The notes under the pieces: generated by a model
Told to the model about the DNA's origin: nothing
What the model saw: only the letters and a program-made list of their open reading frames with translations
Databases searched by the model: none
Part shown: one piece after another, positions 109 to 5,238 of the stretch
How the letters are laid out: the number at the start of each line of letters is the position of its first letter
How positions within the stretch are numbered: the first letter of the stretch is position 1
Virus record (IMG/VR): IMGVR_UViG_2706794492_000015
From: a virus
Lineage: Duplodnaviria; Heunggongvirae; Uroviricota; Caudoviricetes
DNA length: 5,318 bases
Strand: one strand, 5' to 3'
Position numbers and translations under genes: made by a program

Positions 109-203
109 AGAAATGAAAAAAGGCCACGCAGTTGCGCAGCCTGATAAACCCTGGTTAAAATCCACACGATAACAACACAACAATATCAGTATCTCATGCT
201 ATT

Positions 204-228
204 GCCCGAACCCATTCGGGCATTTTTT
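204..228 (+). terminator. Rho-independent terminator, plus strand
   Basis: Stem GCCCGAA (204..210) / TTCGGGC (215..221) with loop CCCA, followed by A then TTTTTT (223..228). On the minus strand it lacks a U-tract. Confidence 0.5.
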
Positions 229-233
229 ACCCA

Positions 234-262
234 TAAAAAAATGCCCCTCCGGAGAGGGGCAT
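234..262 (-). terminator. Rho-independent terminator, minus strand, ending the methyltransferase transcription unit
   Basis: Perfect 9-bp stem ATGCCCCTC / GAGGGGCAT (241..262) with a 4-nt loop; on the minus strand the hairpin is followed by seven T (234..240). Confidence 0.6.
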
Positions 263-510
263 GTTTGCATGCACATTCTTTTTCTTGCATGGTGCCGGGT
301 GCCTCCCGGTGAATTCAGTATCAGCACCTGAACCCGCACAGAAAGGATAGAGTAGAAACACCTGCGCTGATATGCCCCTCCGCTCAGGGGGATTCACCAT
401 GCCAGTTTCTTTTAACAAACTCCCCGCAAACCAGACAACTGTCAACCGTCTGAATTGTGAGACATTTAAAATTTTCGGGGCGTACCTGATACCCGGTTAA
501 TTCTGCAATA

Positions 511-3348: not shown

Positions 3349-3639
3349 TTACCCAAGCACGCCAGTTGCAAAGGCGTGATCAAGAAAACGAAAAATTAAA
3401 TCAACCTGAGAACCATGCTTTTCTTCGAACGCCAGCGGATCCGCATGAAGCTCGTTGTGATGCTCCCGACACAGCGGTAGCGTGAAAATATCGTGAGATT
3501 TTGTCCCCATTCCGCCCTGACCATGACCAATCAGGTGATGGGGATCGTCGGCTGGCTTACCACAACACGCACACGGCTGTGTCTTTACCCAGCGTGTGTA
3601 TTTCTCATTTACCCAGCGGCGACGTTTAGGTCGTTTCAT
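3349..3639 (-). CDS. Small Cys/His-rich protein with an HNH-like (beta-beta-alpha-metal) motif, 96 aa; putative phage nuclease or zinc-binding protein
   Basis: Preferred start is the ATG at 3639, which overlaps the upstream stop as ATGA (3639..3636). The ORF-track start at 3684 is a GTG inside the upstream gene. Motifs CACCG, DDPHH and LCREHHNELH are spaced like an HNH zinc-finger nuclease. Confidence 0.6.
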   Translation of the reverse strand: MKRPKRRRWVNEKYTRWVKTQPCACCGKPADDPHHLIGHGQGGMGTKSHDIFTLPLCREHHNELHADPLAFEEKHGSQVDLIFRFLDHAFATGVLG

Positions 3640-4187
3640 GAACGATTCAGGAGACTCCGGATCAAATGATTGCAGGCCGCCCACCAGGATAATTCGGCCA
3701 GCGATAACTCCCTCTCCTGCGTACCGCTTATTGCGTGACGGATGACATCAATCATCCAGGCAACCAGATTCTGCTGAGCAAGTTGATCGAGTGATTCTGA
3801 TGTCTGGTCGCGCAGCTGGTTGTCGCAGTGCCAGCACAACACCATCGCGCCGGTACCATAACGGTGAATGACTGTTTCGCTGTGATGATAATCGCCGTGT
3901 GGCCACTGGCAGGATTTCACGTGACGTAATAACCAGTCAGACAGTGCACCTGCACCACCTGCTGCACGAATAACCCGCTCATCGCTGAAAAATGGCAGTA
4001 ATGTTTTATCCTCTGCCAGCGGCTGGCGAACGGCAGGAACGACTCCGGACGGCAGACCGCGCATGTTTTTCGGTTCCGGCTCCACCAATATTCTGCCGTT
4101 ATGGAATACTGACATTGATTCACGGCCTGGCTTAACGATAACCAGACCGAGTTCCGGTACCAGAACAGGTCGAAGTAATACCCGCAC
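3636..4187 (-). CDS. Hypothetical nin-region protein, 183 aa, with Cys/His cluster (CQWPHGDYHH...CWHCDN)
   Basis: GTG start at 4187 preceded by GGAGG, with the upstream TAA stop between the ribosome-binding site and the start. First ATG is at 4115 (alternative start giving 159 aa). Same strand and tight packing with neighbours. No family recognised with certainty. Confidence 0.6.
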   Translation of the reverse strand: MRVLLRPVLVPELGLVIVKPGRESMSVFHNGRILVEPEPKNMRGLPSGVVPAVRQPLAEDKTLLPFFSDERVIRAAGGAGALSDWLLRHVKSCQWPHGDYHHSETVIHRYGTGAMVLCWHCDNQLRDQTSESLDQLAQQNLVAWMIDVIRHAISGTQERELSLAELSWWAACNHLIRSLLNRS

Positions 4188-4188
4188 G

Positions 4189-4467
4189 TTACCTCCAGAT
4201 GCGCTGCTGGAATGTGCGGGACGGACGCGGTGGGCGTTCGGAATAAGGGAGCCTGGCGGAGATTATCCAGTGACGACGATCGAAGCTGAGATCTTTCTGA
4301 AACTCGTAACCACGCCTGCGGTAGCACTGAATCAGCCATTCGGCCTGTTCTTCAGTGCATGGGTCATGCTGGAACCAGTCAGATTTGAATGCATGAGAAC
4401 ACCGCCCGTGCCTGCTGGCAAAGACGGCTGAATTATCAGAATTGTTAAGTTTCTTGTAATGCACCAC
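4189..4467 (-). CDS. Hypothetical protein, 92 aa, basic and Cys/His-containing
   Basis: GTG start at 4467 preceded by GAGGA with a 5-nt spacer; there is no ATG codon anywhere in the ORF. Stop TAA at 4191..4189, 1 nt from the next start. Product not recognised. Confidence 0.5.
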   Translation of the reverse strand: MVHYKKLNNSDNSAVFASRHGRCSHAFKSDWFQHDPCTEEQAEWLIQCYRRRGYEFQKDLSFDRRHWIISARLPYSERPPRPSRTFQQRIWR

Positions 4468-4532
4468 TACTATCCTCGTAATGGTGCGACAGACGCCAGT
4501 TGTTCAGGCTGGCTTTACTACAGCATTATAAT

Positions 4533-4700
4533 CTAGTCTCTTTTAATGCTGAAGTAACTGACCGAATCCGCATGCGATTCTTTGCTGATCAGAATAACAT
4601 CAGATGGCAATGGCATTACGATAAACTCACCATTCCCAAGAACTATTACTTCATAATTACCTGGTATAGAAAGCGCAGCAATTAATTCCTTATCGTTCAT
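4533..4700 (-). CDS. Small hypothetical protein (55 aa) inside an AT-rich islet
   Basis: ATG at 4700 (MNDKELIAALSIPGNYEVIVLGNGEFIVMPLPSDVILISKESHADSVSYFSIKRD). The ORF-track start at 4727 is a GTG embedded in an AAGGGGAGGTG stretch. Ribosome-binding site for the ATG is weak. The surrounding region (about 4500..4730) is visibly more AT-rich than its flanks. Confidence 0.3.
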   Translation of the reverse strand: MNDKELIAALSIPGNYEVIVLGNGEFIVMPLPSDVILISKESHADSVSYFSIKRD

Positions 4701-4890
4701 AACAAAAATCCCATGAACTATAAACACCTCCCCTTATGGGGGCCATCCCTCTTATCCCTGCGCGCTACTTAAGAGCCTCGATTCTAGCCGTGAAGACATG
4801 CCAATCAACAGCAATAAACCACCTGAATAACAGAATCAGCCAGCCACATCGGTACAACCAGATGCATCACGCTCACCGAAAATAAACAAC

Positions 4891-4908
4891 AAAAAACCGC
4901 CGAAGCGA
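4891..4908 (-). terminator. Candidate 3' terminator of the hok transcript
   Basis: Minus-strand reading CTCGC-TTCG-GCGG followed by TTTTTTGTTGTTTATTTT; the stem is short (3 GC pairs plus one GU) with a UUCG tetraloop, then a U-tract. Confidence 0.35.
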
Positions 4909-4978
4909 GTTAAGTGGGGTGCGTTGAGGATGCCTGACACATCAGAGGTGGCGAGGGATTTCTCCCCCGCCAGGTCTC

Positions 4979-5134
4979 TTACTCCTCAGGTTCGTAAGCT
5001 GTGAAGACAGCGACCTCCGTCTGGCCGGTTCGGATTCGTACCTCGCAGAGGTCTTTCCTCGTTACCAGTGCCGTCACTATGACGGTTAAACAGATGACGA
5101 TCAGGGCGATTAGCATCGCCTTTTGCTGCTTCAT
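4979..5134 (-). CDS. hokD: Hok/Gef-family type I toxin (small membrane-damaging peptide), 51 aa
   Basis: Translation MKQQKAMLIALIVICLTVIVTALVTRKDLCEVRIRTGQTEVAVFTAYEPEE matches my memory of E. coli HokD/RelF and is a typical Hok protein (hydrophobic N-terminal helix, TRKDLCE...R.G..EVAA/VF). ATG at 5134 preceded by AAGGAG with a 9-nt spacer. The 70-aa ORF-track version adds an in-frame N-terminal extension from an ATG at 5191. Confidence 0.85.
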   Translation of the reverse strand: MKQQKAMLIALIVICLTVIVTALVTRKDLCEVRIRTGQTEVAVFTAYEPEE

Positions 5135-5238
5135 AGCCTGCTTCTCCTTGCCTTTCGGCACGTAAGAGGCTAACCTACGTGTGTAGAGCATAGATATGGC
5201 CTCAGATTAATGTTAAGCGTCTTGCCGGACGCGTAATG

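Follow-up and report, generated by a model that had tools for sequence, protein, structure and literature searches.

Between the hokD gene and the nin-like genes of a lambdoid prophage lies a short AT-rich islet, and the question that it raises is whether the prophage carries there a random passenger or a part of its own induction circuit. The islet belongs to viral record IMGVR_UViG_2706794492_000015, of which we analysed a stretch of 5,318 nucleotides (nt), referred to here as the window. All genes of the window are on the minus strand and constitute the early-right arm of an Escherichia coli lambdoid prophage, in the order sok/hokD, an open reading frame (ORF) of 55 amino acids (aa), a 92-aa gene, DUF968, RusA, the Q antiterminator and then a small winged-helix protein. 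A sequence-only reading had described the islet as a horizontally acquired moron at 4468-4740; its dip in GC content and its 55-aa ORF were confirmed, and its limits, its family-less status, the hairpin taken as its boundary and the coordinates of an associated TATAAT required correction. The islet is a cassette of a promoter and a gene, carried by a Rac/Qin/Gifsy-type lambdoid prophage, and the observation stands and goes somewhat beyond an ordinary moron in interest: a genuine gene of an uncharacterised family sits in an antirepressor slot, beside a covarying RNA leader. From the combined analysis we consider the chances about even that the 55-aa protein is a small antirepressor, and probably the prophage's induction trigger rather than a random passenger.

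The low GC content was borne out by a windowed calculation, with 39.9% for 4468-4740 and 50.4% for the whole window. This is the lowest 273-nt stretch present; 51 of the 5046 segments of that length are equally low and every one of them overlaps the islet, the next minimum (about 0.41) being at roughly 2010-2340. The 55-aa ORF alone has 38.1% GC. Low GC is common to all occupants of the slot (0.405 for rem, 0.405 for gftA, 0.40–0.42 for others, and 0.38–0.42 overall). The limits were not upheld, as alignment with relatives places a variable cassette of about 360 base pairs (bp) at about 4531-4889, composed of a hypervariable spacer, a promoter, a leader and the ORF, and the segment from 4530 down to 4460 is not inserted. 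The upstream limit of the cassette is the hok terminator, and its downstream neighbour is a conserved leader of the nin genes. In the set of 5426 complete E. coli genomes used for all E. coli occurrence counts, the islet is found in 64–79 and hokD-type flanks in 4776.

The minus-strand ORF beginning MNDKELIAALS was found as claimed and is annotated in RefSeq (Table 1). We retrieved and aligned the DNA of diverged copies from other E. coli prophages, whose proteins are 76–91% identical to that of the window. Pairwise Nei-Gojobori ratios of nonsynonymous to synonymous substitution (dN/dS) against L006, L009 and L012 are 0.055–0.12 where dS > 1, with 22–25 substitutions at third codon positions and 8–9 at positions 1 and 2, and the length of 55 codons is kept even in copies only 76% identical. 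Judged from these aligned copies, the ORF encodes a protein and is subject to strong purifying selection. The Shine-Dalgarno sequence ahead of its ATG is weak (GGGA, 8 nt upstream). A GTG-extended 64-aa version starting at 4727, given by some annotators, was rejected; its nine additional codons are not conserved, with non-conservative changes, and the frame is broken there by an indel between L009 and L010. An antisense ORF reported earlier is present at 4500-4685 (plus strand, 61 aa) but is spurious, because stop codons interrupt it in the diverged copies L006 and L009.

The claim that the protein has no recognisable family holds for named families only. Scans of the protein and its relatives against Pfam and NCBIfam gave only chance-level matches (E > 0.03), using a Pfam set without PF27490 in which Rem itself is unmatched, and no family member bears a Pfam domain or a name. 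The protein does match phrog_34610 (E = 4e-39) and belongs to a wider family of 55–60 aa: beyond the close E. coli copies, an exhaustive profile search brought in about 20 more clusters with 31–45% identity, hosted by Salmonella, Cronobacter, Klebsiella, Yokenella and Entomohabitans. The family consensus is MNxxELIxxLxxPGRYEVxxxxxGxFxVxPLxxxAILIxPESHxxCxxxF. In tblastn searches of the phage collection, the E. coli protein had no more than marginal matches, in Klebsiella phages, and the Salmonella member had no match. An AlphaFold2 model built from a 24-sequence alignment (predicted local distance difference test score, pLDDT, of 86.8) has a helix-strand-strand-helix arrangement, and replaced a poor first model from nine close sequences (pLDDT 69.5). 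It resembles no fold in PDB or BFVD, and the sensitive profile and structure searches together gave no named family.

Comparison with related prophages confirmed that the cassette is a variable insert. The slot between the hok terminator and the 92-aa gene is empty in L002 and L223, and such empty-slot prophages otherwise look intact; it holds rem in the K-12 prophage Qin and many other strains (the order in K-12 being hokD-X-92aa-DUF968 with X = rem). In L004 the slot is taken up by a Doc toxin together with two small genes, of which one is Rem-like, and in L005 by a gene for a 130-aa lipoprotein-like protein. In E. coli L006-L008 the 55-aa gene is followed by DUF1367-YbcO-Q, and Klebsiella shows the arrangement LexA box-dinI-55aa-NinG. 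Linkage to hok is not obligate, as no hok precedes the family members of Cronobacter, Entomohabitans, Salmonella and Klebsiella. In the contexts inspected, the gene always sits after the replication module and ahead of the first nin gene. In Cronobacter and in E. coli L009/L010 it has a perfect LexA box upstream. Gifsy-2 has dinI at 11119-11352 and gftA at 11464-11685, then DUF1367 (an irsA homologue) and ninG; the functional phage mEp237 (L224) has a terminator, a LexA box, dinI, an unrelated 82-aa protein (4759-5007) and DUF1367. By its place in this arrangement the 82-aa protein is a further candidate antirepressor, and because it is yet another unrelated small protein the slot holds at least four sequence families.

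The control region of the 55-aa gene is shared with rem. A consensus scan and conservation point to a sigma-70-like promoter, in which TTG and TAGAAT stay 16 nt apart although the sequence between them diverges (L006, L012 and L013 in the alignment). The rem-type counterpart is TTGAAG-18-TAGAAT, and L009/L010 have CGGAAT at the TAGAAT position and the LexA box further upstream instead. On this conservation the cassette is predicted to have a promoter of its own, a moron-like architecture. A 46-nt core of the leader (4728-4773) recurs upstream of rem with about 91% identity and is present in 2418 of the 5426 E. coli genomes and in three phages. The leader folds no better than shuffled sequences (z = -0.7). 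The block shared with rem (4743-4773, minus strand) has two GGGAU repeats (AGGGAUAAGAGGGAUGG) right before a small hairpin, and may be a candidate protein- or small RNA (sRNA)-binding site. This G/C hairpin (about 4729-4742) is the one that had been put at 4727..4745 and taken as the hok-side boundary of the islet. It does exist, but it is small, pairing 4730-4733 with 4738-4741 by four G-C pairs around a 4-nt loop; it has no T-run, is not terminator-like and is absent in L009/L010, and the variable segment continues beyond it to about 4889.

The terminator that does bound the cassette differs from that of the relatives by two substitutions (CTCGCTTCGGCGGTTTTTT in the window versus CCCGCTTCGGCGGGTTTT) that shorten the stem, and more transcripts of hok may run through into the cassette in the window. 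A terminator scan called no terminator-like site in 4100-5318; the cassette has no terminator of its own, and the hairpins past the stop codon have no T-run. An Rfam match to isrK at 4891-4970 (E = 0.4) lies inside the hok 3' untranslated region and was taken as chance. In L012 the spacer between this terminator and the promoter (about 2700-2960 there) is a long tandem array of TTGTTTGTA-like units.

Two known systems offer a guide to function. Rem is the antirepressor of the Qin repressor DicA, derepresses dicBp 165-fold and responds to an inducing signal that is not known (Ragunathan et al. 2023, PMC10448788). In Gifsy prophages, induction is brought about by small antirepressors whose partner repressors are short and uncleaved; the antirepressor locus lies downstream of the replication genes and runs from a terminator through a LexA box and dinI to the antirepressor gene and irsA (Lemire, Figueroa-Bossi and Bossi 2011, PMC3121763). 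FsoA and Rem are not under LexA control (PMC3121763, PMC10448788), and gftA is transcribed in most conditions, with post-transcriptional control suspected (Owen et al. 2020, PMC7067206); a further paper (PMC9879122) concerns genes other than the Gifsy-1 SOS locus. Because Qin and Gifsy keep an antirepressor at this position, the 55-aa gene more likely belongs to the circuit by which the prophage induces itself than to the passengers of benefit to the host.

The genomic slot of Rem (K-12 b1561, PF27490) is identical, with the same succession of hokD terminator, promoter, leader, small gene, 92-aa gene, DUF968 (ydfU) and Q. The promoter hexamers and the leader block are shared too, as are small size, low GC content and lack of a LexA box. 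The N-terminal profile similarity (MNxEEL...GxYxV...NG) is weak, Rem is longer (83 aa), and the C-terminal domain of the partner repressor differs from that of DicA. Like GftA, GfoA, GfhA and FsoA, the 55-aa protein is encoded outside the immunity region, downstream of replication genes and behind a terminator, with its own predicted promoter, and the Gifsy genes are followed by the same leader element and then irsA/DUF1367 or other nin genes. Their partner is likewise a short non-cleavable helix-turn-helix (HTH) repressor, and relatives of the 55-aa gene have LexA boxes and dinI. In contrast to gftA, the window copy has neither LexA box nor dinI; GftA itself is a 73-aa protein with a GUG start.

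The repressors of the five family-bearing prophages inspected are of one kind. The strain CV261 is 100% identical to the window apart from 212 bp missing inside the window's DUF968 gene, and its prophage repressor, encoded beyond the window, some 5.5 kb upstream, beside YdaS-like and YdaT-like genes, has 127 aa and HTH domains only. In the four other prophages the repressors have 129–168 aa and HTH domains only, and none of the five has an S24 protease domain. A C-terminal motif, LPxxERRNMLAAFEMR...YSEY, is common to all five even where the N-terminal HTH domains are unrelated, the domain of the 127-aa repressor being ...LPPVERRNMLAAFQMRLQKLTEFYSEY; the C-termini of DicA and GtgR, partners of Rem and GftA respectively, differ from it. 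A common repressor C-terminus matches what cognate pairing with one antirepressor family predicts, as far as these alignments indicate.

We infer an antirepressor function from position, regulatory architecture and the type of partner repressor, and not from homology or experiment. Several observations weigh against it. No LexA box is found in 4690-5000 of the window, nor in L006 or L012. The family has no significant similarity to the GftA family (hhalign P = 0.2), BLASTP against Rem finds no alignment, and the link to Rem is limited to 24 N-terminal columns (hhalign of the 21-sequence family against 13 Rem sequences; P = 2.3e-4, probability 44%). The slot also houses cargo that is clearly not antirepressor in nature, the Doc toxin and the lipoprotein-like gene, and five prophage contexts are few and possibly of shared ancestry. 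As to LexA, perfect boxes do lie upstream in three of eight family contexts (L009, L014, L017) and also in Gifsy-2. Missing similarity is weak evidence against function because Rem and the GftA family, both proven antirepressors, do not align significantly with each other either (hhalign P = 0.16). By eye, all the small occupants of the slot seem to share G-x-[RL]-[YH]-x-[VIL]...N-G-x-[VFL]. The 55-aa protein is not filed by us as a member of the Rem or the GftA family; that it acts like both is a proposal to which we give roughly even weight.

If this proposal is right, firing of the cassette promoter would yield a 55-aa protein that binds the short, non-cleavable CI-like repressor of 127 aa, probably through the conserved C-terminal domain of the latter. 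The repressor would then leave its operators and the prophage would be induced, in parallel to the action of GfoA and GftA on GfoR and GtgR and of Rem on DicA. In some relatives the 55-aa gene would be under LexA (SOS) control; in the window it would not, and its trigger would be a non-SOS one, as for rem.

Morons of lambdoid phages are units of promoter, gene and terminator between conserved genes, as known from the comparative genomics of HK97 and HK022, and the principal competitor to an antirepressor is an ordinary moron, an acquired accessory gene with a role unrelated to the repressor such as superinfection exclusion, anti-defence or stress tolerance. We regard this as a real possibility of clearly lower probability. 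The cassette resembles a moron as a discrete insert with a GC content of 0.38 and its own predicted promoter, present or absent among otherwise collinear relatives (L002 and L223), in a slot that has accessory cargo elsewhere (the Doc toxin and the 130-aa lipoprotein-like gene) and with no detectable homology to GftA. It departs from one in having no terminator of its own and in occupying a regulatory slot, with a family position that is constant across genera whatever the flanking genes. One repressor C-terminal type alongside in all five contexts, the linkage to a LexA box and dinI in relatives, and a control region in common with the proven antirepressor gene rem also speak against it. The moron interpretation was supported for a variable low-GC cassette with a promoter, and less so for a passenger, the slot being the one where Qin and Gifsy have their antirepressors.

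The protein might otherwise be a small early lytic one, comparable to lambda Ren or the small nin ORFs, made mainly by read-through from pR after induction and acting in replication, recombination or host takeover. Position in the early-right operon between replication and nin genes, in the same orientation as its neighbours, would suit such a protein; a terminator and a conserved promoter ahead of the gene would not, LexA boxes in relatives are a signature of expression from a repressed prophage, and the gene is dispensable, given that prophages with an empty slot look otherwise intact. We consider it unlikely. That the ORF is untranslated, the islet being instead the 3' region of hok mRNA, an sRNA or an accessory part of hok/sok, is very improbable: the islet does lie directly downstream of hokD in E. 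coli and the GGGA Shine-Dalgarno is weak, but a dN/dS of about 0.1 with its codon-position pattern largely refutes this, the 55-codon length is preserved at 76% identity, protein relatives with 31–45% identity occur in hok-free prophages, the hok terminator lies upstream (about 4890-4913), and an Rfam scan gave no match that would support a non-coding islet.

The TATAAT noted earlier at 4526..4531 on the minus strand, just ahead of the 92-aa gene, is present, but its true coordinates are 4530..4525 and it is not in the cassette. It is part of a palindrome, ATTATAAT at 4525-4532, that gives TATAAT at 4530..4525 (minus) and at 4527..4532 (plus). The number of such hexamers is not significant, because the window has only two with 1.67 expected by chance, and a consensus scan gave it no -35 partner (best -35 match in the window, 3/6). 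It is nevertheless conserved in position among 36 distinct related sequences, with the consensus T[TC]A[TC]A[AC]T in which A2 and T6 are invariant. Conservation is higher between the stop codon of the 55-aa gene and the first codon of the 92-aa gene than within the 55-aa ORF itself, and this region holds, behind the hexamer, two hairpins that we refer to as hairpins 1 and 2. We call the whole the nin-leader element. It is also present in empty-slot prophages, after rem (where it is diverged) and after gftA in all 25 GftA-family loci inspected; other genera, and the phages mEp237, SEN34 and SPN3UB, have it ahead of NinG, NinB or DUF1367. Because it occurs in empty-slot prophages and before the first nin gene elsewhere, the TATAAT element is a leader of the nin module and not part of the cassette. 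Its known range comprises phage mEp237 and prophages of E. coli, Salmonella (Gifsy-1 and Gifsy-2), Cronobacter, Klebsiella and Entomohabitans (L002, L006, L014-L017, L138, L139-L218 and L224); a pattern scan of viral contigs gave mostly chance matches, which were filtered by stem complementarity.

The element of the window folds into both hairpins (minimum free energy, MFE, -24.6 kcal/mol; z = -2.3). Hairpin 1 covaries: four of its five pairs change on both sides among 17 sequences, and 98.8% of cells are paired, compared with 19–48% for slid partners. Its stem begins with a purine, and CUGUCGC or CUGAC follows. The gap from the hexamer to hairpin 1 is 6 nt in 31 of the 36 distinct sequences and 11–12 nt in the clade of the window, where a 5–6-nt insertion moves the hexamer and also creates an imperfect 17-nt inverted repeat. 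The Gifsy/GftA class has TTGACT-18-CATAAT over a variable spacer, with TTGACT in 19/19 distinct sequences. For hairpin 2, pairing reaches 98% over the six innermost-conserved pairs and there is one compensatory pair (G-C/A-U); in relatives, counterparts of this hairpin occlude the ATG of DUF1367/irsA, NinG and others. At its 5' end (4447-4467, minus strand) the 92-aa gene is clade-dependent in its start codon and first seven codons, GTG-MVHYKKL in the window and ATG-MAH... elsewhere; because they change together with the compensatory changes of hairpin 2, a recombination breakpoint lies inside the 5' end of this gene.

Leader RNA elements of phages include the boxB nut hairpins of lambda and P22 and the put sites of HK022, and 5' stabiliser hairpins such as that of ompA are also known. 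The element resembles nut and put leaders in its short covarying stem, invariant loop and second hairpin and in its location in the early-right operon upstream of Q. Unlike boxB, it has a 9-nt loop, CCUGAACAA, that is no GNRA-like pentaloop, and it has no boxA. The possibility of a lambda-like boxA (GCTCTTA) at the start of the conserved leader was dropped since that stretch is not kept in L006 and L012; forming a boxB-type pentaloop from hairpin 1 would need a 2-nt bulge and a lone U-A pair and was rejected. Unlike nut, it is at the head of the nin region and not by pR or pL, with a -10-like hexamer at a fixed 6 nt ahead. No Rfam match at E ≤ 1 was found over 4440-4540 of the window or for the Gifsy-2 element, and the nin-leader element is apparently undescribed. 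From its conserved layout it is most likely an internal promoter, whose transcript would begin at hairpin 1 with the first cistron translationally masked, and it would govern the 92-aa, DUF968, RusA and Q genes.

Taken further, and tentatively, the 55-aa family may be a third class of small antirepressors, essentially unrelated in sequence to the others and matched to one type of repressor C-terminus, which in the window clade and in rem-type prophages would be fired by a common non-SOS signal through the shared promoter and leader; the adjoining unit of TATAAT, CCUGAACAA loop and start-codon hairpin would then be a cis-acting regulatory RNA of an undescribed kind, through which Gifsy-, Qin- and mEp237-like phages gate expression of the nin genes and Q. 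We hold this wider scheme to be less probable than the antirepressor function itself.

Table 1. Locations of the features discussed, in window coordinates except for the repressor genes, which are given in the coordinates of the named sequence.
Feature	Position	Strand	Remarks
sok RNA	5129-5303	-	Rfam match, 111.7 bits
hokD (HOK_GEF ORF)	ends at 4979	-	
hok mRNA 3' terminator-like hairpin and T-run	4890..4913	-	upstream boundary of the cassette; weakened in the window and not called by the terminator scan
Hypervariable spacer, hok terminator to cassette promoter	4809..4889	-	unalignable between variants; site of the L009/L010 LexA box
Sigma-70-like promoter of the 55-aa gene, TTGATT-16 nt-TAGAAT	4781..4808	-	consensus scan and conservation
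Inferred 5' leader of the 55-aa gene	4701..4774	-	conserved block CTTAAGTAGCGCGCAGGGATAAGAGGGATGG (4773-4743) and small G/C hairpin
55-aa protein gene, candidate small antirepressor	4533..4700	-	ATG at 4700, TAG at 4535-4533; RefSeq WP_000998188.1, phrog_34610
Imperfect 17-nt inverted repeat	4515..4557	.	spans ORF end, stop codon and TATAAT; 88% complementary; window clade only
TATAAT, -10-like hexamer of the nin-leader element	4525..4530	-	conserved in position in 36 distinct related sequences
Hairpin 1, GCCAG-CCUGAACAA-CUGGC	4495..4513	-	5-bp stem, invariant 9-nt loop; in MFE and centroid folds
Hairpin 2	4461..4487	-	10-bp stem; the loop has the Shine-Dalgarno GAGGA and the 3' arm the GTG (4467-4465) that starts the 92-aa gene
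92-aa gene, phrog_1212	4189..4467	-	first gene after the nin-leader element, then DUF968-RusA-Q
Repressor gene sharing the C-terminal motif	L001 12668-13051		
Repressor gene sharing the C-terminal motif	L221 2497-2886		
Repressor gene sharing the C-terminal motif	L220 766-1158		
Repressor gene sharing the C-terminal motif	L219 3110-3580		
Repressor gene sharing the C-terminal motif	L017 1569-2075		

Other features of the window and its relatives are set out here. The DUF968 (ydfU-like) gene at 3349-4187 is broken into overlapping ORFs of 183 aa and 111 aa, with a junction at 3665/3667 that is contiguous in none of the complete E. coli genomes of the collection; because of this, the junction is either a deletion or an artefact of assembly or editing. 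Beyond the winged-helix gene are an N6 DNA methylase gene and then, downstream of the latter and back to back, two sRNA loci, STnc100 (231-431, minus strand, Rfam 150 bits) and the anti-sRNA AgvB (167-228, plus strand, Rfam 96.5 bits). Prophage L221, which has a 76%-identical copy of the 55-aa gene, encodes just downstream of Q (12044-12769) a 241-aa protein like pertussis toxin S1 and enterotoxin A.

If the 55-aa protein is an antirepressor, it would reveal what switches on induction in a group of E. coli prophages with repressors that RecA cannot cleave, among them those of cattle strains and strains of the Shiga toxin-producing E. coli type. The antirepressor slot would then be one filled by interchangeable, fast-diverging small proteins, of at least four sequence families so far, and such genes would be predictable by position instead of homology. 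The control region in common with rem points to a shared non-SOS trigger, a question left open by the study of Rem. The invariant-loop leader before the nin and Q genes is a candidate means of coupling induction to late gene expression in lambdoid phages that have no N.

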